Source: Phyllosticta citribraziliensis (Eukaryota). Taken from it: a stretch of DNA of 64,000 nucleotides. This document shows positions 1-45,340 of this stretch, in pieces. The stretch covers positions 2,294,001-2,358,000 of the forward strand of contig NW_027117338.1 in the NCBI RefSeq assembly GCF_038025025.1. The letters run 5' to 3'. The notes beneath the pieces are model-generated. The model was given only the letters and a program-made list of their open reading frames with translations, was not told where the DNA came from and made no database searches. Numbering within the stretch: position 1 is the stretch's first letter; each line of letters begins with the position of its first letter. The position numbers and the translations under genes are program-made.

Positions 1-474
1 ACCGAATGCCATACCTGACACACAGACATACGTGGGGCCGCTACGGGAGGGACGTGACGTGCGTGTGGGGGAGAGGGGATCATCATCATGCGGGGTCCCC
101 GGTTGTCGGGCGGAAGAAGTGGCAGACATGGATCTCACGACAACCTACCTAACCATCTCGGACTACACTGGATCAATTGAACGCGCGGGACGCCACTTGT
201 TGGAGAGTGAATGTAAGCAAGCGATTTCGGAGGGCCGTCCCGACGGACATGCATATTTGAAGTTTAGAAGTCCTGCTTGCGATGGATGGAGCAGCCGTCA
301 CATCGACTGCAAGGAATCGTCAACTTTGCTTTGCTGCACTTAACACCTCTTTCCAGGAGCATCCTGAACACGAATTGAGGAGAACAAACAATCGAGTCGT
401 CTGCAATAGCTCAGATAACTCGGAATCCCATTAACGCACTTAATTCATCCTACCAACCAAGCACGCCCCCCAAG

Positions 475-2082
475 ATGTCGCCAAATACACCGTCCTACAC
501 ATACCTCAAGAAGCCCTCACCCGCTTCTCAGAGCAACAGCACCTCCTCCAACGCGTCCGTCGCGACCATCGTCTCCAACGTAATCGACGACGTGCGCGCC
601 CGCGGCGACGCCGCCGTCCGCGCCTACTCGCAGAAATTCGACAAGTGGGACCCGCCGACAGGCTTTAAGCTGAGCGCGGCGCAGATCGAAGCAGCAATTG
701 CGGCGTGTCCGACGCAGCTGATTGACGACATCAAAACGGTGCAGGCGAATGTGAGGAGGTTTGCGCAGGCGCAGAGGGAGTCGTTGCGCGACTTTGAGAT
801 CGAGACGCAGCCGGGGGTCAGGTTGGGGCAGAAGAACGTTCCGGTTGAGAGTGTGGGAGCGTAGGTCATGCCTCTTCTATTTCTCTAGTAGTATTTCTCT
901 TGGTCTCTGCTTGTTTCTGGTGGTTTCATGATACTTCTCCCCCTGGAGGTCATTTGGTGCACGGCAGAGCTGGCGGGTTTGGTCAGACTCACTTGATAAC
1001 AACACCTCAGATACGTCCCTGGCGGTCGGTACCCGCTGCTCGCCAGCGCGCACATGACGATTCTGACGGCGCGCGTCGCGGGCGTCAAAAACGTCGTTGG
1101 CGCTACGCCGCCCATCGCTGGCGAAGTCCCCAATGCCACGGTGGCCGCCATGCACCTGGCGGGCGCCGACGAGATCTACCTGCTGGGCGGTGTACAGGCT
1201 ATCGCCGCCATGGCCATTGGCACTGAGACGATCAAGAAGGTCGACTTCCTCGCGGGTCCGGGTACGTTGATTTCCGGTTTGGTAGAACAAGTGGTTGTCC
1301 ATCCTGGGGAAGCCCAGCCCCTGAACGAAGACTGACACACGTCGCAACCAACAGGCAACGCCTTCGTCGCCGAAGCCAAACGCCAGCTCTTCGGCAGCGT
1401 AGGCATCGACCTCTTCGCCGGGCCCACCGAGATCCTCATCGTCGCCGACGACACAGCATCCCCGCAGACGGTCGCCGTCGACATACTCTCGCAAGCCGAG
1501 CACGGGCCGGACTCGCCCGCCGTAATCATCACGACGAGCGAGGCCGTCGGGCGCCGCGCCGTCCAGCTCATCGACGAGCTGCTCGCGGACCTGCCCACGG
1601 CCGAGCTGGCCGGCGCCAGCTGGCGCGACTGGGGCGAGTGCGTCGTCGTGCCCACGCTCGACGACGCGTGGCGCCTCGCCGACCGCTACGCCAGCGAGCA
1701 CGTGCAGATTCTGACCGAGAACCCGCGCGAGGCGCTGGACAGGATGCGCAATTATGGCGCCCTGTTCTTGGGCGAGATGACGTGCGTGTCGTATGGCGAC
1801 AAGGTTATTGGCACCAACCACGTCCTCCCCACGCGCGGCGCCGCCCGCTACACCGGCGGTCTGTGGGTGGGCAAGTATCTCAAGACGGTCACGTATCAGG
1901 AGGTTGTTGACCCCCGGGCAAGCGGCGAGCTGGGTCGGCTGTGCGGGCGCGCCGCGCGAGCGGAACGCTTCGAGGGGCATGCGCGCTCGGGAGACTTGCG
2001 GGCGCAGAAATATCTGGGAGATGAGTTTGAGTGGATCAAGCAGAGCGAGGGAGAGGCGGAGAAGCAAAGTAACGGTGCGTAG
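475..2082 (+). CDS. Monofunctional histidinol dehydrogenase-family (HisD/HpsN-like) NAD-dependent dehydrogenase, 3 exons (475-860, 1011-1261, 1355-2082), ~454 aa
   Basis: Family motifs [65 protein letters not shown] introns 861-1010 and 1262-1354 join the ORF fragments in frame. Confidence 0.9.
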
Positions 2083-2699
2083 ACTTTTCAAAAATGGCCT
2101 CGGAGGCGGGGATCCACTGCTTTGTGACCCTTTTCAGCACCTGGTGACCCGATTAGTTCGTGCCCCAATTGCACTCGAAGAAATGTCAAGTCCACTCACC
2201 AAAACATGTCATCTATCCTTTCCGCGAGGGACGTTTGGGAAAAACAGCAACAGACGTTAGCACACTGCCCTCACAGACAGAGACTCATATGCAAGTGATT
2301 TTCGAGCCGGTAAGCTATCGCAAGGCATGTCGTGATTCATTACTACTCGATTTTTGACTCCTATTTTCGCCAGATCAACTCGGCAAACCCACTCCAGGTG
2401 AACGAAAAGTCCGGTCGGGGAAGAAAGCAAGTCTACCCACCGAACGCCAACCAGGCCGACGAAAAGAATTGAGAAGAAAGAATGATGGAATGAAAGACGA
2501 AGTGTCATAGAAGTCGTGTCGGGGAGGTGGGTGTCAGCGGTTCCTTGGAAAACGAGGATGCCTTTCCGCGCTGTATCCCACCTTCCACCTTTCCTTGGTA
2601 GGTCATGTCGTCCATGAAGTAACTGAGAAGAGAAAACAAAACGAAGTCATGATCGATCTTCACCCAAGGTGGCCATGCGAAGCCGCTTTGATCCACCAC

Positions 2700-5600
2700 T
2701 CAGAGCCAGAACATGATGTCGTCCAGAGCAGGGTGCCATGGATTCAAGCGACTGCCCTTCAACTTGGGATCAACCGCCGGATTCTCCAACCAGGCGCGCC
2801 AGTATTGGCTTAGCTGGATTTGATTGGCCAAGCGCACGTCACGCTCCTTGGGCTTCTCGGTCTTCGTGCCATCCTTGTCGTAATTGTCGCCGATCAGAAA
2901 CTCGCGGAGGTAGTGTCTTCCACGCTCGCACAAGCGATCTGCATAGTAGGCAGGAGCACAGTATGAGACTGCCTTGGTTGCGCGGGCGTACGTGTAGCAA
3001 AGACCGTGAGCCTAATGATATATCAGTACGGGCACAAGTCAGTGTTGGGATGGGTCTTACAATCTGTTCGATCTCGTCAGCCACAAGGCCGATCTCGTTG
3101 ACAATCTCGATGTAGTGGGCAGGCTTTGCGGTTCCTTGCAGCGCGTCATGGGACTGTAGGAAGAAGTTGCATCGCTTTGGTAAAGTGACGACGCGATCGA
3201 TGACCAGACCGGGCTTGATGTTGCCTTTGTCATTGTAGATCTGGGACTCGTTCGAGGCGAAGAAGCGGCTGTGGTGCCTCTTCGAGACGACGTAGAAGCT
3301 AAGCTTGAGTTCTTTGGGGACGGTGGCCTTTCCATTCCGCTTGGCTTCACTCGCAGCCTGGTCCCAGGCAACTCGGATGGCCGAGGCCTCTTTCTGCTTG
3401 ATGATGGGGAATTGGCCCTCGGAGACTCCGTCACGGAACATGAGAATGTTGCTGGGCAGGCGCGCATTCTTCAACGCGAAGGCAGTGATTCGCTCCTTGG
3501 CCATGCCCGCCATATCCTCGATGTCCTCCTGGCGAGATGCCTGCAGACGCATGGATCCTGGCATGTTGGAGAACTGATCGTCGACAGAACCAACCACAGC
3601 AGCGATGGAGGGGCAGCCGTGGCAGCTACCCGCTCCCGGATGGGTGACGTCGGCTCCGAGAATAAGGGTGTTGACCATACCCTGAGGAGTGAAGAGCTTG
3701 CGGAATTCGCTCTTGTAGTCGAGGGCCTGGTTTGTGCCGCCGCACTTGAGGTTAAACTTCATGGCGAGGTTGGACAGCGTCTGCGGGTGGGGAGGGCCTT
3801 TTGAGAAATGTTTTGGGAGCGCAGCGACAGTACGGGTGCCCCATTTGCAATCTGCCCACTTCTTGAGCGCAGCGTACAAGTCCACGCTTGGTGAGGGAAG
3901 CACGACAAGAAGCATTCGTGGGGGGTTGCGAGCAAGATGGGCTGGGTTGCCTCGGAGTTCCCTCCTGAAGTCCTGTCTCAAAGATGGAAGCCTGATCTCT
4001 CGGACCTGATTGTCCTTGGGCCTCTGGACATTCATTCCGTGACCCGAAAGCGCTCGTTGCATCGCGTCCCATAACTGAGGTGCGTTGATCCTGGGAGGGG
4101 GTTGGCCTTGCTGGTTGATGACCATGACTTCCAAGCCTGGCACGGATGCAGGTTTGCTGAACTTGGTGTTGGCCAAGTTCCAACCCGCGTTCCTGACATT
4201 TGCCGGACGATTGCCAGCGTAGGTAACTTTGGGGACCGGCAACAGACGGCCTTCGATCTGGATCAAGTTGTTTCCAAGCTTCAGGCCAATTTTGCCCTGT
4301 TCAATGTTAGCGAAAGCACGGTGGAACGTACAACAAATGCACTTACGAAGAGAGCCTTGTCACCACGGATACCCAGCAGATCCATGCCCTCCTTGTAGAT
4401 CAAGTTCGCATTCTCCGCCGGCTTGCGGCATGCAACCTTGATGATGTTCTTGAGGTGCTCGGGAGTGATGACGCCCTTGTAGACCTCTTTGCGATCGATT
4501 TCCAGGTACTCCGGGGGAACCCAGACTGCCTTGTCGTCGTTGCCGGACCTGTCTTTAGGCTTGCCAATGTTGGCGCACGGGAGATATGGCTTCCGAAATT
4601 GATTGAGTGTAGCGTGGAAGTGCTGCCAAAGAGGAGCCCTTTCGCCAGGCGCGCTTTCGAACGGATGGAATGTTTGCGACTTGACGGGAGCTCCGAGCTC
4701 CTTCAGTTTGCGCCTCCTGTTAGGCTCCGTGTTGGGGTCAATGCGCTCATCCCACGTAGGGCGATCGTAGGTGATGCGCACATTGGTGCCCTTCAGAGAC
4801 GCCATGACTTCTCTGTTGCTCATGTTGAAAGGTGGGGCGCCCATCTTCTCGATCCAGTCGGAGACAGGGACGGGGTCGAAGAAGGCAGTGGTTGCTGCGT
4901 TGATATTCAAGAGGACTCTACCCTCTGCCGGCCGGGTTGAAAGAAAGTATGTGCGCGTCGCAAGTAGGCCACCAATGTCCATGTATCCACCATCCACTGC
5001 GAAACGATTCTGGCCAATCTGGGTGATGTCGTTGGGCTGATGGTCCATAATTTTGCGACCAATGAAAGCATTGATAGCACGTACGATGCATTCTGGCTGT
5101 TCGCTTGCCAGAATGTCCTCGGAGGCTTCGTTCATGCGTAGGATTTTGTTGTACCGAATCTGAACGGACTTGGTCGTGGTCGGCGCGCCATTGAGAGGAG
5201 AGCTGTAAGACACTGGTCCAACGTTGGTGGTGGTTTCGACATCGGGCATTCCTGGGAGAGGAGTCAAGGACCAGATAGCACCGGTCTCAAAGGCGAAGTC
5301 GGATGCGCCTTGGAGTGGTTCCATGCTCTTCATAGCCTCGAGAATGCGCCATTTCTCGGTGCGGTCCTTGATCTTGGCGTCAAAGGTGAGGGCGTACTCG
5401 TGGATCTCCTTGAATTGATGTGCCATCGTAAGGTAGTTGGCAGTGACCTGCATCTTCTGACCGCGAGTGCCATGAAGCAGGGCGTTTGACTGACCCGTGG
5501 GCTTCACGGGTTCGGTGGGTTCTTTGAAGACCTTGGAGTTCGTAAACGGCGGAGCAACAGGCTTGGGCCTCTTCAAAATGGGCGATTTGAACTGGCGGGC

Positions 5601-5711
5601 AGTGTCAGGTTTGACATTGATGAGTTTGGCATTCGGGCCAGGGCCACAGCTTCCGGAGTCCGAAGACTGGCCTGGCTTGGGGCCGCGGGTGGGCAAGGGT
5701 GGCGGTGGCAT
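2700..5711 (-). CDS. Argonaute protein A (N-L1-PAZ-L2-MID-PIWI), 3 exons (5711-4347, 4296-3061, 3011-2700), ~970 aa
   Basis: ArgoN GTRGQKMQVTANY; L1 STRPAEGRVLLNINAATTAFF; PAZ end WVPPEYLEI; MID NLAMKFNLKCGGTN; PIWI GADVTHP, FRDGVSEGQF, KRHHSRFF, FFLQSHDALQGTAKPAHY, PAYYADRLCER; C-terminus MFWL. Two GT-AG introns restore the frame. Confidence 0.95.
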
Positions 5712-6623
5712 TGTGTTCAGTCGAAATTGGTGAGGTTGTGTTGGAGTTGGGACATGCGTGAGCCGCTGGGCAATGGAGATGGGGAAACGTGACCGGGGCG
5801 GACGGTAGGTTGCAAGTGAAGAGGCCGAAGTTGAACGGAGGAATGTCGACAAGGGCCGTGTAGCTTAGGACGCGGGGAATGACGTAGGTCCTGGGCAGAC
5901 AATGGCCGCGGTCGACGTGCGGTCTAGGTCTAGGTCAAGGTCTAGGCGCGGGAAAAGCTGCTGTGTGAGAGAGTTAGCTTGTGCCGAAGCATTGGGGTTT
6001 GGGGAGTTTACATATTGCAGGACTCTGAGCAGAGGGCGGGCAACAGCAGGCGAGAAGGTTCGGGGTGAGAGAGAAAGACGAGGGTGGAGGAGGGAAAAAG
6101 AGAGGAGAGGGCAGAAGACTGTGGTACTGACATGAATATAACTGCCTGGGCCCTTCACCTTCCATTCGTACCTGCCCTGCTGCGTCCAGTCCAGGACCCG
6201 ACGTTTGCTAAGGCTCAGGTGTGCCGTTTGGCGCTAGGTCGGAAGCGGAAGGGACAGGCCCTGCGGGTCCTACTGACAGCGGCTGTGGTTGGTCTGCCTG
6301 TCGTCTGCCTGTGGAATGCCGCCTCCCCGTCCAAAGCAAATATCCCGAACCGACCATCCTGCAGCTTGCCATGGATTGCATTTGCCAATTGGATTGGACG
6401 CGCTGAGCCGATGCGATGGATGCTTGCACAATGCCAAAGTCAGTCTCTATGTGTGACTCTTCACTCCATGAATCGCGGACATGTGCAGTCAAAGTTTCTT
6501 GAGTTGAGTCTTCCGTACGCGTCTCTCGATCGTTTAGTTATCGTACGGTACCAAAGTGGGGATGCCCGGTTCTCCTACGCGCCTTTGTTCAATGTTTTGC
6601 TTTTCCGACGCGTCCGCCTGCAC

Positions 6624-7797
6624 TCAATGCGCGCCCAGCGTTCTCATGACGCCCTCAAACGCTACAAGGGCCATTGCGTTTGCTGGGAATGCCCGCAGGA
6701 AGCACGGGACAAAGCCTCGCCAGTACCCCCGCCACCCGTTCTCTTTCCAAACTGCTTTTGCTGCATCCTTCCACCGTGGGTACTTTCTCCCCTCGCCCAA
6801 TGGATCCGTCATGATGCGTTGTTTCACCACGTCGCAGGGGTAGCTTGTTAACCAAAAGATTTGGGCAGATAGCCCACCAGCCCAGAAATTGATGGCCGGT
6901 GCTGAAAGCGACGTGTTTGCCGAAAAGTACCGCGTCAAGACATCGTATGATCCCCACCAAGCAAAAAACCACGTGCGGAAGAGAATCGTCGCGGTCAAGC
7001 CGTGGAAGAGTCCGGGTAGGCCATGGCCGCGTATCTGGACGGTCAGAGGTCAGAATTATGGTGACCCGGAAAGCACGTCTGTGCCATTGAGGCTCACCAG
7101 CTTCATGCTACAATCTATCGGGCCGCTGTACAGTCTCTGTGCCTTGTCCGCGGCGTACTGCACTTGGAGCCGAGCCTTGACGTGCTCTACAGGAGCCGCG
7201 ATAAAGCTGACTGTCCATCCTGCCATGATGCCAGCAACCCCGTGTCCGACGGTTGGCAATTTGTGCGTCGATTGCTCGAGAGCATTGACGGGAGTGAAGA
7301 CGTGCTCGCGGAGAAGACGGCGGTATACGGTAAGGGATCCAAGCATCCTGTGCGCGAGCTATCAGCGGCCATAGCATTTGAACGGACAAGGACGACTCAC
7401 AGCGAGTCCATTGCCATCCACCCCACGAGTGGAGGAGTAGCGCCCTTGTACAGGCCTCGCATCCCCTCATTGCGGACAGTCTGCACCAGACATTCCAGGG
7501 GCCCCTTGAATTGCGACTTTTCGGAAGTCTGCAGGCGGACCTTGATGGTGTCGAAGCTTCAAGGCGGTTAACGGTCGATGTCGTCGATGAAAAGGTTGGA
7601 GACTTACGGGTGTCCAACTACACAGAGTCAGCCGTCGGACATGACAAGGGGTCCTATTTGTCCTCACCAACTAATTTGGTAATGCCAGAAAATATGCCAG
7701 CGACGAATCCCTTGTAGTTTGCGGGCGCGGGGGCTATCTTTTTTTCCTGCGAAGATGCGACGCCATGGTTGAGCGAGGAGCTCGCCGTTGCAGACAT
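6624..7797 (-). CDS. Mitochondrial carrier family protein (YMC1/carnitine-ornithine carrier-like), multi-exon
   Basis: Three carrier signatures: FDTIKVRLQ, PVEHVKARLQ, PCDVVKQRIM. N-terminus MSATASSSLNHG...NYKGFVAGIFSG; C-terminus GFVPCFLRAFPANA. Confidence 0.9.
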
Positions 7798-8396
7798 CAC
7801 CGGGGGAGAAACACACGGGGAAAAGAGGCAGCGCAGTCTTTGAACATGCCTGGTTCTGAGTCAATGTTCAATGGGCGCGCGTGTCGACGAAGCATTGCGC
7901 ACGCAGCGCAGGCGGGACGTCAACGGACATTTGATAAGCGGGCTCGATGGGCCAAGACGGAGCCGCTGCGGCTCTTCGGGCTGTTAATGACGGTATGCAA
8001 AAACCACCGAGATCGCCTGCAACAACAGGCATCCAGGATCAAAGACTTCGGCTAGATCTAAACCTCTTTTGCAAGTTTGCGCCATGAGTTTGCGACGCCA
8101 CCAGAAAATGGATGTTTTCAACGTGGGCAAAAACTGGGCCACGAGGGCGCCGGCGCGCGCTGACAGGCCCGATAAGCCATCCACTGGACCATTGGCGACG
8201 CGAGCCTGGGGGTGGGCCTCTGCGGCCGAGGCCTTCCTTTGGAGAGACCTTAGCCGATGATGTGACGATGTAGGTCCAAGGGCCCTCAGGTCAAGGGCGC
8301 GAGGCAGCCTTGCTTACCATATTGCCCTCTTCCTCTCCTTCGATTCTTCTCCTGCTCCTCCTTCTGCTGCCTCGTCTCCCTGTCCAACTCCTAGCA

Positions 8397-9492
8397 ATGT
8401 CCATCCAAGACGAAAAGAACGCGGCAGCTGTTGCTGCGGTAAACCCAGACCAGACGCGCGTGGTTGACTCCAGCAAAGGTGCGCGTGCGCTTCAACATTT
8501 CCGTCGGGACCTGTTCGCTGACCGAAGCGCCCAGTATGGACCACGTTAATCACAAACACGGCCTACCTGCCTGGCCTCCTTGCGCTCGACTTCTCACTGA
8601 AGCGCGTTGGCTCCAAACACCCGCTGGTTGCCCTCTACACGGATGCTTTCCCACCGGAAGGGCACCGCGCGCTAGACGTGCGCGGGATTCCCAAAAAGCA
8701 CATCCCTTACCTTTTGCCCACCTCGCACAAGGACTACTCGAATGACCCGCGCTTCTACGACTGCTGGAGCAAACTGACGCCCTTCAGCCTGGTAGAGTAT
8801 GACAGGGTTGTGCAGTTGGACTCGGACATGTTGGCGCTGCAGAACATGGACGAGCTGATGGAGCTAGAGCTGGATCCTCCGAGCCTTGAGGCCAAGGGCC
8901 AGAGAGTGTTTGCAGCGTCACATGCTTGCGTCTGCAATCCTCTGAAGAAGCCACACTACCCAGCAGACTGGTGAGTTTCGCCTTGGCCTTCGATCTGCGA
9001 CAACGGCTGAGACATGGCAGGATCCCGGAAAACTGCGCCTTCACGACCCAACATTCGAAGCCGAAGCTGGCACAGAGGGAAGGCGCGTCGCCAACGGCCG
9101 GTCTCGCCATGCCAAACGGCGGACTTCAAGTCGTAAACCCGTCGGCGGCTGCGTACGGTGCGATTCTGCGCGCGCTGCAATCTCCGACCAGCATGGCGTA
9201 TGAGTTTGCGGACCAGTCGCTCCTGTCGGACGTGTTCAGCGGTCGATGGGTCGGCATCCCGTACATCTACAATGCGCTCAAGACGATGCGGTGGAAGGGG
9301 GTCCACGATGCTATATGGAGAGATGAGCAGGTCAAGAACGTGCACTACCTCCTGGCGCCCAAGCCGTGGGAGGAAACGCCGGCGCAGAGGCAAAATCGTG
9401 ATAAGCGGACGGAAATAAATGCATGGTGGTGGGAGATCAACGAGGAGCGCAAAGGGGAGGAGATGGCGCGCGGCATCGACGACGGCTTCTGA
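8397..9492 (+). CDS. Glycosyltransferase family 8 protein (glycogenin/galactinol-synthase-like), 3 exons
   Basis: VWTTLITNTAYLPGLLAL, DxD motif VQLDSDML, FADQSLLS, YNALKT, VHYLLAPKPW. Introns at ~8479-8534 and 8971-9020. Confidence 0.88.
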
Positions 9493-10280
9493 GAGTGGCA
9501 TGATGGAGGGAGCATGGGGGGGCATGTAGCTAGATATAGACGGTAATTGCACGTAATTGCATCCAAGCAGATCATTGTGGCGCCACGGCAAGAGTGCTCG
9601 TCCTGGTCGTCTTCGGAGCGAGCCGAGCCCTACCTTAGCAGCAGCGGAGAGCAGTGGTTGGTGACCCGGCCCATGTCGTCGTCCTGGCGCGCGGCACTGG
9701 CTGGCAGGCCCTGCGGTGAGACAGTCTGACGCCCAAAATAAGCTGAGTTGCGTTGGCGACGACATGGACCTGAGTGAGTGCCAGCAAGGTGCACCGCATG
9801 ACGAGAGGACGAGGGACGCATGGCGGGGGGAGCGCATCTCTCCAGCAGATGAACGCGACGGGCGGGACGTGATGCCTGTAGGTATCGATTGGCGCCCCTG
9901 ACCACAACCTAAGCCTTACATCCAGGAACAACCCAACATCTTGCTCCCCACCCACCTCCGAGCTTCGTGCAAAAAAAGAGCCCCTTTACCGTCGCTCCCG
10001 CAGCCTGTATACTAGCCTGCGCTGTCCCGCTATCCGCTGCTGTCCATCCTCGACCTCGCTCGCGACACCCCCCTCCCTCACGCCTCACGCGCGCGCCGCG
10101 CCTCTCCCTGGCCATCCAAACGCTTTCTGCTGAGCCGGCGTTTCAACCCACTCCATCCCTCCTCACCTCTCCATCGGCCATTCTCCCATCTCCGCCGCGA
10201 CCCTTACGCCCTCATCGCCCGTCCTCCGTCCTCCGTCTTCTGTCCTCCACCCTCGCGTCAAAAACACTCCGGCCGTCAAC

Positions 10281-11060
<780 letters not shown>

Positions 11061-11743
11061 GGGCCTGGTTCTTGACCGCAACAGATGATACCCGCTCGTT
11101 GGTGCCTCATACCTACCAACGAGCCCTCGGACCTCTCCATACCCTTCAACAATCCTCTCTTTGCGAGTGCGACTCCGGCTCCCAAACGGACCAGTGCCTC
11201 GTTTTCGATGCTACTTTTCCCCTCCTCTCTCTCCTGCGTTGTTTCGCCTTACTTTCGTGGCGCACATTAGACTCGACGGCTTGACGGATGTTATTCATCC
11301 ACGACATCAAACTACAGCGTGTCTACCTCTCTGTAAAAACGGGTAGATCATTGTCTAGCTGCGAGAAGTCGCCCACAACTCCTTTTATACTCCAAAAATT
11401 CCGGCATCGATACCTTGTCTTAACAACGACTTTCCCCAAGATGCCGTCCTCAACATCCGTCGGCGCCTAGCTAGTTGCCTCTTCACTCGCTCCAAAGAAA
11501 TCCACACCCTTCTCCCACAGCAGAGCCCCTGGTCGTTTCCTTTTATCCCCTGCCTGTGAGCTCATGATACCTGTCGCGCTTTGCGTTTTTTCCTTGAGTC
11601 GATTTTCCTTGTGTTTTGATCTTGCCGCGTTCCGTCAGCCTTTTCCTTGCTGTTTTCCCACGTCTCTTGGCTACTTTTGTTTTTTGCTGTTGCTTTCCTT
11701 GAGTCTTAGTCTCTACCTTTTCCATTATCAGTAATCCTATTTC

Positions 11744-11778
11744 TCTCTCTATATCTCCATCTCTCTCTCTCTCTCTCT
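11744..11778. repeat. (CT)n microsatellite / pyrimidine tract
   Basis: ctctctctatatctccatctctctctctctctctct read directly. Confidence 0.7.
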
Positions 11779-13010
11779 CTACCGTTACAACTATGCTCAC
11801 CACAGCAAGCAAGCACTACCTACTTATTGCTGCTCCCTGCCTAATTGGGCTCATCACTACTATTCCTTAATTGCTCACCCCCGTCCATCCACACACACCT
11901 CTGGATGCCTTGGCCCCTTCCGTACGTACGCTTGCATGTGGTACATGAGTTCCCTTTTCTCTTAGACGGGCGGAAAGCGGGGGCGTCAAATCGTGGATTG
12001 TCGAATCTTCTGGGGGGAGAGTTGGCCGGACGGACTGGTGGTTTGTTCAATTGCGACAGGCCTCGTCTTTGAACGGCGACTCGCATCGCTTGGTCTTTGG
12101 AGTGCGTTGTTGCTGTTGCTGTTGCTGGAGGAGGCGGTCGGTCCTCGATCTTACAAGCCGAGAAAAGGGGAAGTTTGGTGGAAGGAAGATGCGCGAGGGC
12201 GGTGGCTGCAGGAGAAGCGGTCGAATTGGACGATCAGTACGGCTGGGTAGACTGGGGGCGTGGGCGGGAAGATGTCATTGGCTTTTGTTCGTTTTGGTCT
12301 TTATTGTCGTGTCAATTGTACTGTCTACCGTTGTGCTCGCTGCCTGTTCGCCTGTTTGTCTGTATCCGCCTGAGGCGACGAAAGAATCGGTGCAAAAACA
12401 AAAACAGAAAATAAAAGTCTTGTCTGTCCATGTACCTACCCATCGTGCCTGTGCTGTCTTGCCCTCCACTCATGAGCAACACGTGTCCATCATACACACT
12501 CCCTCTCAGCTGCGGCCTTCCCTCTTCTTCCAGCTCTCCCCCGCCAAGATGGACCGTCGACTCCAAGTGACACAAACGGCGCGCGTGGACGACACGAAAC
12601 CAGAGACGAAACGAGACGTCGTAAGCTGCCGTACATAGTCACCCACCTCTTGCTGGCCAAAACAGCCGATGATGGAGACGATTCATGTTTGAGACTGCCG
12701 AGGAGGAGGTGGAGGAGGCCGCGTCGTTGTCATCGTCGGACGAAGAACCACGACCAGCGACGGACGAATGTGGCTGGAGTTGCCTTCTGGGCTTGGTGTT
12801 TTGGCTTGCTGCCGAAGATGCGAATACAGGCAGCAAAGACGCACAGACAGAGGGATGGATGTTCAAAAAGGCCGAAATGGTATTACTACTACACGCTGCT
12901 TGCCCATTCTATCCTACAGTGTGGATATTTGTTTCTTCTCATCGTTGCTCATAACCTACGTGTTCTCGTTCCTTTCAATGGTAGTCTGCGTCAAGTTCAA
13001 TTCCCAGCCT

Positions 13011-14519
13011 CTAGAGCTTTTGCTTCTCCTCCAACTCGCAAAACGCCTTGAAAGTGACGAAGCTGTCGTCAGCGGCCTCGAGAACACACTCGGCCGTGGC
13101 GCCGACAAAGTAGACGAATCCCGGCTCGACGGGCTCCTTCTTCGGGCCCACCGAGATGGTGCCCTTGCCTTCGGTGCAGAGAACAATGCTAGGCCCCTCG
13201 ATGCCGTCAAACGTCGCCTTGGCGCCAGCCTTGTTCAGAGCCGTCCTGATGACGCTGAACTCCTCGATCGGCGGGTCGTACAGGATGGACGAGGAGGCGG
13301 ACGAGTAGGCCGGCACGTTGAGCGTCACATACGGGTAGTCCTTGGGCTCCATCTTCTGCTCCTCGATAGGCGCGTAATTGTACGTAAGCATTGACGTCAG
13401 CGTCGAGACGTCCTTGAACTTGGGCGTGAAGCCCGCGCGCACCACATTGTCCGACGACGCCATGCACTCGATGATGTCGCCCGACAGGTAGGCGTGAATG
13501 TCGTCGGCCTGCAGGAACATGGCTTCGCCTACGTCCAGCTTGACGTAGTTGAGGAAGAAGAGCACGAAGAGACCAATGTCGTTGGGGAACTGCGAATTGC
13601 AGCGTTGCACGAGCTCTGAGAGCTCGGCGCCGCTGTTGGAGGGCCCGCCTTCTCCTGCAAAAGCATCGCCCTCGGACTTGGCTTGCTCGAGTAGCTCTGG
13701 CGTCCTTGCTTCGATGTCCTCCGGCGTTGACGTCATGAGGGACGTAAAGGCCTTTTGGAGCGCTTCCTTGTTGGCCTTTTGGTCCTCCTCCTTGTCCGAT
13801 GTCTCATTGCCCTTGATCTTGCTCTCAAAGTGGGAAGCCACCTCCTCGCCCACAAGCTTGCGTAGAGAAGGTACCGTGGAAAGGAAGTGGGCGATTTCTG
13901 CCAGAGGGCGGAAACCACAAAGGCCGTCAAATGGCGTGATGGCAATAGTCATTTCGGGCTTGTGGTTGTCATCTGGCCTCAAGTCAGCCCCCTTGGCTTC
14001 CAAGAGCGTATCGGGCACAGTTGTATACCAGGATAGTTTTTGGGGTCTTTGGCGTGCAGCTGTTCGGCCAACTGCTTGTTCGGGTGGGCCTGAATGCTCA
14101 GCGCTTTGCGGATCGAAAGAACCTTGAACAAGAACGGCAGCCTCCCGCCATATTTTTCAGATATTTCCTGCGACATGAGCGCCTGGTTGTCCTGGACGAG
14201 CTCGAGCAGGCTCCTCTGAGTCTCGACATCCTTCGAAGGGAGCGACGGGTGTGTGCCCATCCATAGTTCTGCGTATGGCTTCTCTTCTTGTATGCTGAAG
14301 TCCGAGGGAGGAGTGGCAGAGGCGAATTTGGCCGCGGCAGAGGAGCTGCCGACCTTGCCTGGGAAATGTTAGAGGGGAAAAGTCTCGAGGCGGCGCTGTT
14401 TGGGAAGAGATACCCCAGTCGTAGCTGTTTACACCTTGGATTTGTTAGCGGCGACGCGATTGGCTAGATTTGGAGTTGACCGCATTACCGCACTGGAGTC
14501 TGATCAAGGGAACCTGCAT
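13011..14519 (-). CDS. manA: Mannose-6-phosphate isomerase (type I PMI), multi-exon
   Basis: [76 protein letters not shown]. Confidence 0.95.
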
Positions 14520-14952
14520 GGTGGCAGATGGAGGAGTCAAATGGGCCAAGAGTCGAGAGGAAAAGTAAAAGCAGAGAAGACTCGAATCTGGTTTGGTCTG
14601 GTGTCCGGAGGCTAAGCTAACGTCACTCGGGTCGGGCTGGCCAGAAGGCGCCAAGCTTTGGGCGCACGGTCTGCCTCGCGGGTCATGCAGTCAAAGGAGG
14701 GATCGACGCCTGACTCGCGCTCGAACTAGCACTAGCCCGGCCGGTAGCGCACCCGTTGGACACACTTCCCCATAACCTCCAACCTTCGACCACAGCACCT
14801 ACGACTTCGTTCAAAATCAAGCTCGCCCTGACCAGGGTCGCGTGCTTACTCTCCGCACCCTCCTGGGCGTTTCCACCTTCTTGCGCCTCTCTTCCGACTC
14901 GCTCTCAGGTTGCATGTAAACATCAACACAAAGGCTTCGCGCGCCGCCCGAA

Positions 14953-16489
14953 ATGACATCGCGGAGCCGTCCCCGCGGCAGCCAGATCAAAGATGATGCA
15001 GATGAAGAGCGCAGCATCTGGAACCAGCTTCGTACTGATGCCCGCAAGGTGGATGGCTTGGTGGTAAGTAGAAACCCTTGGAAGACACCACGGTCTCCAC
15101 ACTGTCTGCACAATCCATCCATGCTTGGCGCGCATACTGAGCTTGAAGCGCAGCTTTGCCGCGTTTTGATACTGTTGAGCTTACCATGGTCGTTGGTGGG
15201 CTGTGACCTGCGCAAGGCTTCGCTAATCAGTCCGACAGAGGGAATCAAATGAGATTGAAAAGCGCATCTACGAGCTAGGCGTAGCCCAGCAAACCATTGA
15301 AGGTGACCGATGTCTCTGACCTTTTCCTTTTTCCGTTACGTCATCTATCACGGTCTTTTCGTCATTTCTCAACCTGCAGTGTGCCTCATGCGCAGCCCAC
15401 CCCCCGGCGATTTCCCCAAGCATTGGCTAACGCACCTACAGCACGGGGAGACATGCCCCCCGCGGATATAGACAACGAGCTGGACGAGCTTGTCCGCAAG
15501 AATATCCGCCTGCACGAAGCCATCACTAGCCTGACAGACGGTTCTTCCTCCGACAGCAGCATGTCCATCACCCAAGGCCTTGAACTCCTGTCAGCCCTTC
15601 GCGCCGCTTCTGCAACCTCTCCCGACACCACGTCCAATGGCTCGCGGCAGGCCAGCGCCAAGGTCCAGCGCAACCCAAAACGAGCCAAGCTTGAGCCGAC
15701 TCTGAATGACGACAATGACTCCATGGCAGCAGAATCTCCCAAAATGAGTCTCATCAGCTCAGGCGTCAAAGATCGTCTTGGCGTTGGCGGCAGCAAGGCT
15801 GGGAGCAGAAGCGGCAGCGTCGGTGCCACGCGCGAAACCAGCGTCAAAGTCGAGGACGGCAACGACAGCATCGACAGCAAAGGTAAAGTTCACAAAGCCA
15901 CTGCGCATCTCTAACGACGACCTTTGCACCAAGTATCTTCCAGGGTTGGTCTGATACGTCTATCAAGTGTCCATCGGCGAGCGACATCGTCTCAGTGTCG
16001 GCACCGAGGTCTTTTACCGTAACAAGCAGAAGAACACAGAGGGCGAAGGCATACTCTGTGCTGTTACGGCAGTGATTGGCGAAGGAAAGCAAAGACGGTA
16101 ACCCAATCCCGAGCTAAATTATCTACTGCAACTCCGTTCCAACAACTCAATGCAGATACGAAATCATCGACTCAGACCCCGATCCCCCTACACCTCCCCA
16201 ACCCTACCGCGCCTCTGTAAATGCTCTTGTACCGATACCCAAAACAAACGAAGGACTGTCTGAACTCCCTCCTCGCAAGACTGTCCTTGCTGTATATCCC
16301 TTCACAACCACATTCTATAAGGCCGAGGTTGTGGCATCACGACCCGGGAAAGGACTAAAGAAAGATGGAAAAGACATTGGCGCGGATCTTAAAGAAGGCT
16401 ATGTGAGACTGCGATTTGAGGGCGAGGACGAAGCAGACACGGAAAAGGATGTGGAACGGAGGTACGTGCTACCTGAACCAGGAAGGTAA
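14953..16489 (+). CDS. SGF29: SAGA-associated factor 29 (tandem Tudor), multi-exon
   Basis: N-terminal coiled coil (EERSIWNQLR). C-terminal Tudor-like segments EGEGILCAVTAVIGEGKQ, YEIIDSDPD, VLAVYPFTTTFYKAEV, LRFEGEDE, VERRYVL. Internal exon boundaries approximate. Confidence 0.85.
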
Positions 16490-17411
16490 ATACCCAGACT
16501 CCATTGCGACAGACATGGCATGACCAACCTTTTGCAAGGGATGGTTTGATTTTGGAACTCCACTGAAAATTTGGCGTGGAATTTTCGTTCTCGTCTTGAT
16601 TACCTTCGGCCCCGAGACAAGATTTCTGCGACTTGTCTTGGTTACTATTTTAATGCAGCTTTCACGTCCAGAATGTGTGTGCTCCTTCTGTTGGTGCAAA
16701 TGCTGCCTCTATGGTAAACACGTTGGTATCATCATGACTGACACGCAGGTTTTACCAAAAACCGGCCCTCCGCTCTCCTCCCGCTCTCTCTGCGCAGTCT
16801 ACTGTACTGGCGTTGTTACAATCGGAAACACCGGAAATGGAGGTAGGCGCAACGTCAAATGGTCATCATGGGATTGCTGACGGATTTCGCTGTTGAATTA
16901 CTACATGTATTTGGCTGTTGCTCCGTCTAGCCATGGACAGGCTGGTTTTGCAACGCAGAGAATGCATCCTGCGCCGTCTAGACCAATTCTTGTTCGTCTA
17001 CAATCCATCTTTCTGGCAAAACAAAGCTTCTTTGCACAGGGAAATTAGTGTGGGCATTGCGGAATTCCCTCAGAGACCGTGGGCATTTGTGAAGAGTTGG
17101 TGTTGACCACAGTCGTTGCACGTCTAGGTTCAAACAGCTATCGACAACCGAATCTCATGAGTTTCTTGTGTTGCTGCGATTGGGGTTCCAACCAGCCTGC
17201 TGGGTTTGGCAGCTATCTTCAGTTGTGGATGTGGTGTTTTCTGCAAACACTGACGCGCAACACAAGCCCCCGAACTCCATATAAGACCGACGCTGGATCT
17301 CCGTGGTCCACGGCAGTCAGAACCTCTCGCATTCAAGAGTTTCTGATTTTCGACCTTCATTGCACTCACCTTTCGAAACTTCTCGCCTCGTTTCGACACC
17401 TCAATCTTACA

Positions 17412-20400
17412 ATGAGCTTCCAAAATTTCTTCAACAAGAAGCCGTGCCAGCGCTGTGGCTCTAAGGAGCATACTGCTAATCGTTGTGAAGATATTCGCGC
17501 ACTGACTGACAACCCAAGCAATGACCCGCTGATTTGGCCTGATGCTTTGACCGTGAAAAAGCGTATCGAATACGAAGTTGCTTTGGTCAAGAAGCGTGGA
17601 CACAGTTTTCAGTACCTTGGCGGACTAACCCTCGAGGAGTTCCGAAGGCGTATCGACGATAGAGCTTCTACTTCAGCTGCTGGCGCCAGTTCCTCCGCAA
17701 CCCCAGCCACGCTCGCCCCCGGTGGCAGCCCTGCCTCTTCAAGTGGCACTCCGTCACGCACTGCAGCTGATCTTGTGGCTATGCCAGTCCGCACGAAGCC
17801 TGCTGGCGCGCCTACAGGTGGAGGCAACCAGCCCAAAGGTGGCACTGCTTCTTCGACTTCTGTCTCAACACCTTCTGGTCCTCCGAACTCTCAGTCTGGA
17901 ACAGGTAACTCTGATTACGAAGTTTCGCGAAGCTTATGCTAACGTTCGATCAGACCACAGACCTTTGAGAAGGCAGAGCCTCAGTCTTCGTGATCGAAAA
18001 CCAGCGACGACGTCTGATCCATCCGCCGGCAGCTTTGCTCTGGTCGACAAGCGTGCTGTTTTCGAGAGTCTCTTGGCCAAGCAACAATCCGCGAAAAAAG
18101 CCGACGTCTTCCCTTTGCGTCCCGGCTTCGGTCTCAAGGACCAGAACGCGAACATCCACACGAATCACTTCAGAATGACGCTCCCCAAAACTTTGCATCG
18201 TTACACCATTGGTCTGACCAAGGTTTGCAGCTCCTGGAGCCAAGCTGCGCGGAAAAGACTCATCGAAGCTTTTTTCGACCACGTCAACCATTTTGGACAA
18301 GAGTCAGACTTCGCCACGGACTATCTTCTCAATATTGTCTCGTGGAAGGAGCTCAAATTCCCGCTTGTGGACCCGAATCTGAAGAAAGAAGCTCAGGATG
18401 TCTTTTCTTGTCCGTCATTGACGAACGACAACCTGGTCTTTTCGAGCAAAGTTCCTTTTGGAAGGAACCAAGAGCATGTCGCAATTTACAGCCATGGTCA
18501 GGTTGACCTCAACGGCTTCAAGAACTACGTCGAAGGCCAACCGGGCTGCCAGGAACACGACAACTCCATCGCTTGCCAGTCGCTCAGCATCATCATTTCC
18601 AAGGCCGCTAGGGCAACTCAGCCGGACTACCAAAGTTTCCAACTTGGCAGCAACAGGCTTTTCATTAAGAGTCGTTGGGATCCCCTGGACATCACATGGG
18701 TCCAGCTTGGACGTAACCCCATCGAAACTTCTAGAAACCTTGTCGTTTGCCATCATGGATTTTCCTTCATTGTCAAGCCGGCCATGGGAGGCGCGCTCCT
18801 CAATGTCAACAACGCGACGAGTGCATTTTTCCATCCACGTCTCGTTTCAGACTTCATCAGGCACCACAATGGTACGCCTGGCTTCCAACGCCTACTTCGA
18901 GGTGTTCGCGTCTACGTCGACTATCGCGGAAGACAAAGCCACTCCAACGACGACGATCCCAGCAACAAAATCAAAACCATCAACGGCTTTGGCGTCCCTG
19001 TGGACAAGCAGACCTTCGAAAAAGATGGCAAAATTGTCAGCGTCTATGATCATCTTACCAGCAAGTATCCTCACCAGAAGATTGATCGAGCGTCCTTGAG
19101 TGTGAACTTGGGTGGTAAGGACAAGATGAAGTTGTGGTACGCGCCTGAAATGCTTCGAATCCTCCCTTACCAGCCTTACCGTGCAAAGCTATCCCCCGAG
19201 CAGACGACGAACATGATCAACCTGGCTTGCAAAAGGCCCCCTGTCAAGGTCTCAGAAATCTTGGGTGATGGACTCCGTTCTATTAACATGGGAGTATCAA
19301 GCACAGTCGTCGTTCCGAATTCTGGTCTGGAGATCGACCCGCAGATGCTGACTGTTCCTTCGCGACAAGCCCCCGAGCCTCATCTTTTTTTCCGCTCAGT
19401 GAAAAATCTCCCACAGGTCCGTCAAGGAAGATGGTCACTTCCCCCCGGCGCCCAATTTTTTTCAACCGATACGGGAGTCGGAGGTGGATTTCATTACCTT
19501 TTCCTCGAAAGAGTGGTCAATGGCCTTGGGAGGAATGATCCGCATCCCGGACAAATTCATAATGATTTCGTAGGGGTACTGAGGAGTCTTGGAATTCGAT
19601 TCAGAGCACCCGTGGGCACGTACACGGCCATGCACAGCTATGATAGGGCGGAGATTGGTCGAGGTGTATCAGAAGCTGTGGCGAAGTCTGCTTCTCTGGT
19701 AGTACTTCTGATGATGACTCCATCAACTCAGGCGTACTCGGACTTCAAGACAGAAGCGGATCGACGGGTCGGTCTACAGTCAATCTGCCTTTCCAAGTAC
19801 TGGAAAAGCAAAAACAAGTCAGGCTATCTGAGGAATGTTGGGATGAAGGTAAACCTGAAGTTAGGCAACATCAACACCACTGTCAACAAGGGCCTTGGTA
19901 CTGCAGGAGGAAAACCCATCGACAAGAACGTCATGATCCTTGGAGCCGATGTCACGCATCCATCTGCACTGTCGTCGCATGGAACACCGTCAATTGCTGC
20001 GGTCGTTGGCAGTGTTGATGGCACCTTTGGGAAATTCCTTGGATCAATGAGATGGCAACAGCCTGACGAGAGGTCTGATGGAACCTTGAAGCAGAGCAAA
20101 GAGGTTTATATTCAACCCATGTTTTTCCAGATTCCATGGCAGACACTGACATGCAACAGATCATCGAGGACATGAGGTCCATGGTCAGAGAGCGCTTGAA
20201 TGCTTATTATTCGGTCAATAACAAACTTCCCGACCACATCATCTACTACCGCGACGGAGTGAGCGAAGCCCAGCGTGCAGAAGTCAAGAACAAGGAGGTT
20301 ACAGCAATCAAGGCAGCATACCAGGATATTGCAGGCACGAAGAATGTGCAGACCGCAGTGCCAGTGACTGCAATCATTGTCACAAAACGCCACGGTACAC

Positions 20401-20961
20401 GCTTTTTTCCACGCAGCAACGCTCAGAAGTCTGAAAAGGTCAATGACAACATCGTCCCTGGCACTGTCGTAGACACCTGTGTGACCTCTCCCTACTACTT
20501 TGACTTCTTTCTGTCTTCGCATGCCGGCATCCAGGGCACATCGAAACCAGCACACTACTTTGTCGTGGAAAACGGGCTGGGGTTCAACGCAACAGAGCTG
20601 CAAAATGTCGTAAGTCATCCTTCCAATTACCCATTTCCCGGAATCTCCACTCGCCACTATTCTCCTGCACCAAATCCCAGCCTCAATCCTCACGTTTGAC
20701 TAAACTAACACTCCCACGCGACAGACGCAAAATATTTGCGCCATCTACGTCCGCGCAATGATGACTGTCTCGTACGCATCGCCAACCTATTATGCGGACC
20801 GCTTGTGCGAGCGCGGTCGCATTTACCTTCGCGAGTTCTACGACGGTGCAATCCCTTCGGATTTAACTCCGGATCGATTCAGAATCAGGCTCAATGATAT
20901 CTGGAACAAGCACCAGAACCCCTGGCACGACAGATTGAGCGGCACGATGTTCTGGATGTGA
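17412..20961 (+). CDS. Argonaute protein B with N-terminal CCHC zinc knuckle, 4 exons (17412-17904, 17954-20103, 20160-20609, 20725-20961), ~1109 aa
   Basis: CQRCGSKEHTANRC; ArgoN FPLRPGFG...IHTNHF; L1 VKPAMGGALLNVNNATSAFF; PAZ end WYAPEMLRI; MID NVGMKVNLKLGNIN; PIWI GADVTHP, YYRDGVSE, KRHGTRFF, FFLSSHAGIQGTSKPAHY, PTYYADRLCER; C-terminus MFWM. Three GT-AG introns give one continuous frame. Confidence 0.95.
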
Positions 20962-36980: not shown

Positions 36981-37828
36981 CTAATGCAAATGGTCTTCGT
37001 CTCTCTGCTCCTCCTCATCATCGCTGTCGCTCACTTCTTCCCAGCCCGCCAGTCTCCTCAAGAGCTTGTTTTCAGCCTTGAGTTCCTTGATTTTTCGTTC
37101 GTGCGGCAGGCTTGCCTCGGAGCTTTCTTTCAACGCAGCCCGAGCGAATTGAGCAGCGCGCCCCAAACCTGCCTGCCATTCCTGATGCTCCAACCTGAGC
37201 TCCAGATTTTGCTGCCGTTCCTTCTCCAACAGAGTATTATAATGAGAGTGCAAAGCGAGGATGGCTTGCTCGTGTCGAAAGGTGAATGGTCGCAATTTTT
37301 CGAGAATCGCGGTGACGGAGGATTCGTAGTCTGATACGAGGCCTTGCAATGCGGAATTTTGCGATTCGAGAGAGGAGATTTTGCTTTGCGCGGCCTGAAG
37401 TTGGGTGCGAAGGGAGTTTATTTCTGCGAGTTGGGCGCGGTTGTTGGCAGCAGAAATATCGCCGTTCACTTGGGCGACGGTGGGTGGGGATCCATCTTGG
37501 GCGGCGCGAGCCTGTCCGAGGAATCGTTAGAATCTTGGACAGAGGATTGTTCAGGTTCAGCACATGCCTGTATTTGCTGCACGCTGTTCATGATATTGGC
37601 CGTCTGACTTCTATTCTCGGCGAGCACGTCGGACAGCTGCTGGACAACCTGCCACAAGTGGTTCATGTCGGTTTGGTGTCCTCCGCTCAGAAGACCGTTG
37701 ACGAGATTGGGCATGCCGCCGGAGCCGTTTGGTTGGTGGCCCGGGCCCGGCGATGGAGATTGTCGAGGAAGCGAGTTTGCCATGACGTTGTTGTTCGGGG
37801 AGTCGATATAGTGCGGAGGCTGATTCAT
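36981..37828 (-). CDS. Coiled-coil protein, probable SIKE/FGFR1OP2-like STRIPAK adaptor (SCI1/SipB-type); exons 37828-37568 and 37511-36981, ~263 aa
   Basis: Helical N-terminus DMNHLWQVVQQLSDVLAENR. QNSALQGLVSDYESSVTAILEKLR and IKELKAENKLLRRL resemble SIKE-family coiled coils (recalled similarity, not searched). A 56-nt GC-AG intron joins the two frames. Confidence 0.65.
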
Positions 37829-45187: not shown

Positions 45188-45340
45188 TGGTAATGGAGAA
45201 ACGGTCGCCCTACTGTGAGGGTAAAGGGTAGAGATACTTGGACTCGAAGCGTGTCGGCTGCTACAAGCCGGTGCCGAGTTGTTGCTTGTTCCAACCCGAG
45301 TCCAAGGCCGAGCTTCGCTTCCAATGTTTCTGTGTGGTTG

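Follow-up and report, generated by a model that had tools for sequence, protein, structure and literature searches.

Two divergent Argonaute genes bracketing a five-gene block in Phyllosticta citribraziliensis are best placed in a third clade of ascomycete Argonautes

Fungal RNA interference (RNAi) is commonly divided into a quelling branch and a meiotic-silencing branch, and many plant-associated ascomycetes hold extra Argonautes without an assigned job. Pezizomycotina carry 1-7 Argonautes, mostly of the DD[DEK] type (PMC4290597). Extra fungal Argonautes outside the clades of quelling and of MSUD (meiotic silencing by unpaired DNA) are already in print (PMC12054834, PMC7325678, PMC5946944), and the two genes analyzed here, AgoA and AgoB of the citrus-associated fungus Phyllosticta citribraziliensis, are additional members of this recognized, uncharacterized kind. 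They lie in a stretch of 64,000 nucleotides (NCBI RefSeq assembly GCF_038025025.1, contig NW_027117338.1, positions 2,294,001 to 2,358,000 of the forward strand), which is called the window below and is numbered from its first letter. The literature search found no work on Argonautes of Phyllosticta, on the linkage described here or on fungal Argonautes with a knuckle, most subscription papers being outside its coverage.

The closest described systems differ in how far they resemble the pair. QDE-2 of Neurospora crassa (quelling; PDB 2yhb) is like AgoA and AgoB in domain order and in its DEDD catalytic tetrad, its group is the sister clade in the best tree, and the position of the last intron recurs on the QDE-2 side. 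AgoA and AgoB are nevertheless not its orthologues (another gene of the genome, C19, is), and they are set apart by the tail motifs ADR-C-RG and NPWH and, in AgoB, by a zinc knuckle. SMS-2 of N. crassa and its homologue MoAGO1 share only the Argonaute fold with the pair. BcAGO3, BcAGO4 and BdAgo4 are likewise extra Argonautes of unassigned function in four-AGO genomes (PMC12054834, PMC7325678); they would share a clade with AgoA and AgoB, the sole link to the genus Botrytis being a Botrytis paeoniae protein (P0021) in that clade. Deleting BcAGO3 and BcAGO4 left both the small-RNA profiles and the cross-kingdom silencing tested unchanged (PMC12054834), so any role is likely to be subtle or conditional. 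MoAGO2 of Pyricularia oryzae, a third-group DEDD Argonaute without a Neurospora counterpart, binds small interfering RNAs (siRNAs) from viruses and transposons and competes with the main effector, which makes it a model for AgoB (PMC5946944); it differs in that it may sit within the QDE-2 side of the present trees. Among Dothideomycetes, Zymoseptoria tritici has Ago1, Ago3 and Ago4 genes with deep allelic and cross-species divergence, their highly distinct allele groups and discordant genealogy having been shown with 36 assemblies (PMC8303167).

The reading judged likely overall is that AgoA and AgoB are functional third-clade Argonautes that split long ago, are linked to a conserved gene block, came to point away from each other through inversion, and behave differently, AgoA being stable and AgoB in conflict. 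An earlier note made from the sequence alone had described two complete, divergent Argonaute genes 11.7 kb apart that bracket five genes, and gene models together with Pfam matches agree: AgoA lies on the minus strand and AgoB on the plus strand, their start codons are 11,701 bp apart, all introns of the models are canonical GT-AG introns in open frames, and Pfam identifies a mitochondrial carrier, a GT8-like protein, an ARF GTPase, phosphomannose isomerase (PMI) and SGF29 between them.

AgoA (2700..5711, minus strand) encodes 970 amino acids in three exons (5711-4347, 4296-3061 and 3011-2700), and its model is identical to a public P. citribraziliensis protein (P0182). Pfam reports Piwi and ArgoL1 above and ArgoL2 below the cut-off, with no Pfam match to PAZ; the AlphaFold model (predicted local distance difference test score, pLDDT, 88.4) is confident through the PAZ region, and the domain order is N-L1-PAZ-L2-MID-PIWI. 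AgoB (17412..20961, plus strand) encodes 1109 amino acids in four exons (17412-17904, 17954-20103, 20160-20609 and 20725-20961). Its domains follow the same order behind an N-terminal CCHC zinc-knuckle motif (17445..17486, plus strand; C-x2-C-x4-H-x4-C at residues 12-25; Pfam zf-CCHC_3 at E 0.011, below the cut-off) and a low-complexity linker. No such knuckle is present in the AgoA sequence. A loose CCHC motif occurs in 16 of 64 full-length clade members versus 1 of 31 QDE-2-side rows (Fisher p 0.009 on rows that are not independent; shuffle mean 0.012). Several public models of AgoB orthologues begin downstream of the knuckle, so the AgoB start codon is provisional. Pfam matches AgoB to Piwi and ArgoN, and PAZ appears in AgoB orthologues below or near the cut-off only. 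The AlphaFold model of AgoB exon 2 (pLDDT 82.8) is confident through the PAZ region and, in a structure search, matches human Ago2 across some 680 columns (E 9e-34); with confident models for both proteins, the weak Pfam signal for PAZ therefore points to divergence rather than loss.

Both proteins keep the slicer tetrad, as the earlier note had claimed. In AgoA it is D671/E712/D744/D892, read by alignment to the catalytic positions of human Ago2, and in AgoB it is D830/E881/D913/D1056, read by alignment to AgoA. The Tyr and three Lys of the MID 5'-phosphate pocket are kept in both, and the human Ago2 MID Gln is replaced by Val or Ile, as it is in the QDE-2 alignment. Across AgoB orthologues, the three tetrad Asp and the MID Tyr/Lys residues are kept in all nine rows that reach them. 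The Glu finger can be read in six (P0001, P0171, P0176, P0004, P0005 and P0177), and the models of P0002, P0003 and P0173 are without it, at a splice point.

Evidence from RNA comes from assembled contigs of four of the 24 listed runs, whose conditions are not on record, compared to the window. Runs X1 and X2 behave as RNA, since their contigs pass over housekeeping-gene introns. Splicing is seen at both introns of the AgoA coding region (4297..4346 and the phase-0 last intron, EQI|AHG, at 3012..3060, minus strand): 4346-5960 is joined to 3060-4295 in X1 contig 1, and 3060-4058 to 2464-3010 in X2 contig 19. The X1 piece stops at 5960 with 150 letters remaining, at the edge of a probable AgoA intron in the 5' untranslated region (UTR) (5961..6011, minus strand; GT...AG with a branch-like site). 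For AgoB, a piece of X1 contig 5 (18558-20101) stops at the second intron with 863 letters remaining, and a piece of X2 contig 23 starts at 20725, the last acceptor, directly behind the phase-0 last intron (QNV|TQN; 20610..20724, plus strand); the contig rows shown give these piece ends and not the joints. Splicing of the first AgoB intron and of the knuckle exon was not seen among the contig rows shown. The 5' part of AgoB is without cover in X2, which is not a finding on expression, and contig depths for AgoA and AgoB (696 and 50 in X1, 53 and 19.5 in X2) cannot rank the genes. Contigs of X15 are short pieces only and uninformative.

A search of the genome for PIWI identifies four genes: AgoA, AgoB, one on contig C19 and one on contig C15. 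The genome also has two Dicer_dimer matches and three matches to RNA-dependent RNA polymerase (RdRP), all on other contigs, which confirms the earlier remark that the window is free of Dicer and RdRP genes. This set of two Dicer, four AGO and three RdRP genes is shared by Botryosphaeria dothidea (PMC7325678). Scores against QDE-2, from queries of differing length, are 303 bits for C19, 182 for the MID-PIWI part of AgoA, 168.5 for an AgoB orthologue (P0001) and 151 for C15, and C19 is the QDE-2-like gene of the genome. This QDE-2-like Argonaute (L006 3519-6572, minus strand; G000 C19) is intronless and sits on a contig of only 35 kb.

Relatives were collected as the best 150 of 6071 representatives for AgoA PIWI, a sampling seeded by AgoA. 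FastTree analysis of the 142 of 172 proteins that cover PIWI (30 fragments were dropped) places AgoA and AgoB within an 87-row clade with support 99. The named proteins of this clade belong to Botrytis, Candelina, Sclerophora, Zasmidium, Tothia, Aplosporella, Elasticomyces and several Pleosporales, and the orthologues of AgoA and of AgoB come from Phyllosticta species. A clade tree with outgroups, built on 32 hand-picked rows, recovers the AgoA/AgoB clade at 100/99 and joins it at 97/96 to the QDE-2-like group that holds C19. A search of the ESM Atlas returned generic Argonaute clusters only. On these trees, AgoA and AgoB are best placed in a putative third clade of filamentous ascomycetes, here called the NPWH clade after its C-terminal motif, apart from the QDE-2 and SMS-2 groups.

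The linkage of the pair was followed in named relatives by accession spacing, GenBank numbering proteins along a contig. In all eight assemblies that list the three proteins, PMI is 4 from AgoA and 2 from AgoB, as in the window. The spacing between AgoA and AgoB is 6 in all 12 assemblies of P. citrichinensis, P. citricarpa, P. paracitricarpa and P. citriasiana that could be tested, and one further AgoB accession has no listed AgoA. In another relative (X19), a 10,250-nucleotide DNA contig carries SGF29 and the SNU13 region at the window's spacing, with AgoB pieces between. Phyllosticta capitalensis has a different order: PMI is 5 from AgoA in 6 of 6 assemblies, and AgoB is 138-148 genes away on the far side of AgoA in 5 of 5, an order that a single large inversion would produce if one of its breaks lay beside AgoB. 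Large inversions are reported in P. capitalensis within otherwise macrosyntenic Phyllosticta species (bioRxiv 10.1101/2021.11.27.470207). Judging by the spacing, the breakpoint region relative to P. capitalensis would be the spacer between SGF29 and AgoB (16490..17411, plus strand), which has a TATA-like site near 17279. An X1 RNA contig runs through this spacer, spanning 16155-17398 (plus strand) from the last SGF29 exon across the TATA-like site to 14 nucleotides before the AgoB start; it is either a long SGF29 3' end or a merger with the AgoB 5' UTR.

Among 80 metagenome PMI loci, many of them short, SGF29 is nearby in 35, ARF in 23, GT8 in 8, the carrier in 6 and an Argonaute in 2. The two Argonaute-bearing loci, L075 (intact) and L085 (broken), have PMI proteins 85-92% identical to those of Pleosporales, and both Argonautes are of the B type, stand at the block end distal to the PMI promoter and point away. 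The L085 gene (16784-20112, plus strand) has an in-frame stop and a frameshift and is a probable pseudogene. The N-terminus of the L075 protein has a seemingly RGG-rich segment and no knuckle (6883-7100, plus strand, approximate coordinates). A further open frame in L075 (10774-11475, plus strand) starts 250 nucleotides behind the Argonaute and runs off the sequence end; as a candidate second Argonaute it was set aside, not being among the top matches to the compared proteins. At two other loci, L078 and L079, the five genes keep exactly the order of the window, with no Argonaute within the flanks covered, and this order with AgoA and AgoB added head to tail is one inversion away from that of the window. 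We infer that one inversion of an old tandem pair is the simplest path to the present order. That an old head-to-tail arrangement of block, AgoA and AgoB was flipped in this way is thought slightly more probable than the contrary; arrival of AgoA beside the block from elsewhere is a tentative second route, of appreciable weight. In Parastagonospora nodorum, SnAGO2 and SnAGO3 (SNOG_10544 and SNOG_10546) are two gene numbers apart (PMC10792503), possibly a linked pair or one split gene model. Nothing on this gene block was found in 12 of the 29 supplementary files of PMC3516569 or in 12 of the 35 of PMC7325678.

What was not expected is the gap between the two genes in their rates of change. Identity of the window's proteins to those of P. 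citrichinensis, P. citricarpa and P. capitalensis is 98.7, 94.8 and 93.7% for PMI, 95.0, 84.7 and 81.5% for AgoA, and 67.1, 70.2 and 55.9% for AgoB, so that Poisson distances for AgoB are 7.8, 2.1 and 2.8 times those for AgoA. Between two P. capitalensis assemblies the identities are 98.7% (PMI), 99.0% (AgoA) and 85.0% (AgoB), a B/A distance ratio of 16. Within AgoB, conservation is 64-78% in PIWI, 51-63% in MID and 50-67% in L2, PIWI being the most or second most conserved part. The specialization after the split that the earlier note proposed is upheld in this sense, as divergence in rate and architecture. At short distances AgoB shows an excess of divergence, which suggests that its alleles are old or that selection came in bursts, as reported for Ago1, Ago3 and Ago4 of Z. 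tritici (PMC8303167); saturation can mimic this excess. Trans-species polymorphism of AgoB was considered and not adopted: the best tree joins AgoB to the P. citricarpa group (84/89) against the species pattern, and a species-like grouping has p 0.16 in the approximately unbiased test (p-AU), whereas discordance in Z. tritici was demonstrated. The boldest version, in which AgoB is a hypervariable, knuckle-bearing antiviral or anti-transposon Argonaute with old allelic lineages crossing species under balancing selection, AgoA is its conserved partner, and the tandem pair is older than the Dothideomycete orders and forms a third RNAi branch, is regarded as speculative and unlikely.

The same rates could arise if AgoB were a decaying, low-use paralogue under relaxed selection, with only AgoA mattering and no arms race needed to explain the speed. 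Its 67.1% identity to the sister-species orthologue versus 95.0% for AgoA fits this account, as do its lower GC content at third codon positions (GC3; 0.575 versus 0.688) and broken or fragmentary relatives (L085, P0003 and P0174). Elsewhere, one strain carries a premature stop in BcAGO4 (PMC12054834), and the third and fourth AGO genes of Z. tritici are truncated and weakly expressed (PMC6620828). Against decay stand an open frame of 3.3 kb, the Asp and MID residues kept throughout, the Glu finger in six orthologues, conservation graded by domain, spliced RNA in two runs and a confident predicted fold, and the account is considered rather improbable. The claim that both copies are under selection is sustained: both are intact, transcribed in two runs and constrained.

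A local inverted duplication in the Phyllosticta or Botryosphaeriales stem, after which the copies became too divergent for trees to join, would explain why two genes of one clade lie 11.7 kb apart and are linked in every testable assembly of four species, chance proximity being unlikely a priori. AgoA and AgoB are also mutual best paralogues over N-PAZ, and their stems are long (0.65-0.68 changes per site). The resemblance that first suggested duplication is, however, not special to the pair. The shared tail and the phase-0 last intron at the same aligned position, both cited in the earlier note, are real and are found clade-wide: ADR-C-RG occurs in 79 of 87 clade rows versus 1 of 47 QDE-2-side rows, and the NPW tail in 73 of 87 versus none of 47. 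A survey of 24 unspliced fragments, 20 with the anchor motif, counted by eye, found a Val encoded by GT at the shared intron point in 10 of 12 clade fragments and in 8 of 8 from the QDE-2 side; the L075 gene carries the same phase-0 last intron, and the intron is older than the tail signature of the clade. The two proteins are 33% identical over 742 columns, no higher than AgoA is to an Alternaria protein (P0020, 31%) or to C19 (29%), both of which give higher bit scores. Similarity at the DNA level is limited to 103 nucleotides at 72% (2899-3001 versus 20735-20837), and there is no signature of repeat-induced point mutation (RIP) in either gene (TpA/ApT 0.37 and 0.46, against the thresholds in common use).

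The trees also argue against a duplication private to this lineage. In a 38-row tree, AgoB groups at 100/99 with an Elasticomyces protein (P0129), a Plenodomus protein (P0140), P0156 and the L075 and L085 genes, some of these Pleosporales relatives lying at the same block, and AgoA belongs elsewhere, to a group (93/92) that also holds proteins of Tothia and Aplosporella, a second Elasticomyces protein and further Pleosporales. A single clade of AgoA and AgoB is rejected under LG+G4 (p-AU 5.6e-5 with 36 rows and 2.6e-5 with 38 rows) and under a C20 mixture (p-AU 0.0044, 20 rows), so the split is far older than Phyllosticta. Since Pleosporales and Elasticomyces proteins are present on both the A and the B side, the split also predates those lineages, and we infer that the A and B lineages separated before Pleosporales, Botryosphaeriales and black-yeast lineages did; the Dothideomycete ancestor is given an age above 280 million years by Ohm et al. 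(PMC3516569). A duplication private to this lineage, with the cited traits clade-wide, is thus largely refuted and has little probability left; what stands of the old local inverted duplication first proposed is a very old tandem origin followed by inversion, which is possible, and the duplication need not itself have set the inverted orientation.

From its tail, the pair had at first been likened to SMS-2, and a part in meiotic silencing would follow if it were SMS-2-like. A union of the AgoA/AgoB clade with the C15 group is 32 log units worse than the best tree and keeps a p-AU of 0.054. The likeness is not borne out by the best trees, all of which place AgoA and AgoB outside the group of C15 and P0012, in a separate clade that joins the QDE-2-like group instead. 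The C15 tetrad is DEDH, as is that of the SMS-2 homologue MoAGO1, and DEDD is the tetrad of the QDE-2 homologue and of the third group (PMC5946944), as it is of AgoA and AgoB; by its tetrad and by elimination, C15 is the putative SMS-2-like gene. Transcripts of both genes occur in runs of unstated condition, which do not point to meiosis, and the meiotic explanation is very improbable. Least probable of all is that the AgoA-block-AgoB arrangement is itself selected, through shared regulation or co-inheritance of compatible alleles, as its retention in four sister species and the window genome and the SGF29 RNA contig reaching almost to the AgoB start might suggest, for it is broken in 5 of 5 P. 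capitalensis assemblies, the Phyllosticta species concerned share macrosynteny in any case (bioRxiv 2021.11.27.470207), L078 and L079 show the identical block order with no Argonaute in the flanks covered, and the two genes do not share a promoter. Their linkage is probably a by-product of inversions.

Several points weigh against the preferred reading of an old, block-linked pair with a stable AgoA and an AgoB in conflict. A grouping of AgoA as sister to the whole B subclade, named after the tree had been seen, has p-AU 0.075, and the long stems of both genes bear on the same question. The trees are without named SMS-2, MoAGO2 and BcAGO3/4 sequences and without named Botryosphaeriaceae orthologues. 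Accession spacing serves as a proxy for gene order. Neither L075 nor L085 showed a second Argonaute, with less than 1 kb covered beyond each gene, and clade members on the A side or at the base from Aplosporella, Massariosphaeria and Botrytis paeoniae, candidate orthologues of AgoA, lie on contigs other than that of PMI. The four Argonaute gene numbers of B. dothidea are far apart and include no close or linked pair (PMC7325678), a difference from the present locus. The fast change of AgoB could reflect relaxed selection, the L085 gene being broken and P. citriasiana models of AgoB gapped or fragmentary. Slicing, guides and targets are read from motifs.

The genes between the Argonautes have introns that RNA contigs skip in four cases. 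They are the mitochondrial carrier gene (6624..7798, minus strand; PF00153, Mito_carr, above the cut-off, with the start codon read from sequence), the glycosyltransferase family 8-like gene (8397..9492, plus strand; PF01501, Glyco_transf_8, below the cut-off on two single exons), the ARF-family GTPase (10281..11060, plus strand; PF00025, Arf, above the cut-off), which the earlier note labels ARF6, and SGF29 (14953..16489, plus strand; PF07039, SGF29_Tudor, above the cut-off). PMI (13011..14519, minus strand) matches Pfam above the cut-off and has named orthologues. The 3' region of the ARF gene has a CT simple repeat at 11732-11790. Directly downstream of AgoA and convergent with it is a histidinol dehydrogenase-like gene (474-2082, plus strand), presumably stand-alone and not of the trifunctional HIS4 type. 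Farther away, an open frame of 2624 codons (37466-45340, minus strand), rich in Ser, Pro, Arg and Gly and with a short internal repeat at 42642-42854, gave no Pfam matches.

Under the preferred reading, a B-type gene would have stood beside the SGF29-PMI-ARF-GT8-carrier block since at least the split of Pleosporales and Botryosphaeriales, and AgoA would have been there since at least the common ancestor of the sampled Phyllosticta species, the head-away order having arisen through intrachromosomal inversions of the kind that is typical in Dothideomycetes. The five genes between, which have no evident part in a silencing mechanism, would be neighbors by history rather than partners. Small RNAs made by the unlinked Dicers and RdRPs would load through the MID pocket and PAZ, and PIWI would cut the target. 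AgoA may be a stable accessory effector. AgoB changes fast, most likely through conflict with mycoviruses or transposons, and could be an effector or, in the manner of MoAGO2, compete for small RNAs. Both would thus be siRNA slicers of an accessory kind, AgoB probably one in conflict with RNA parasites.

The locus thus offers two intact, expressed members of the third clade in one genus with many genomes, which also includes harmless endophytes suited to such work. As AgoA is stable and AgoB changes about eight times faster between sister species, what extra Argonautes bind, and the reason why one of them races, become directly testable, and the gap in rates and the knuckle are what merits further attention.

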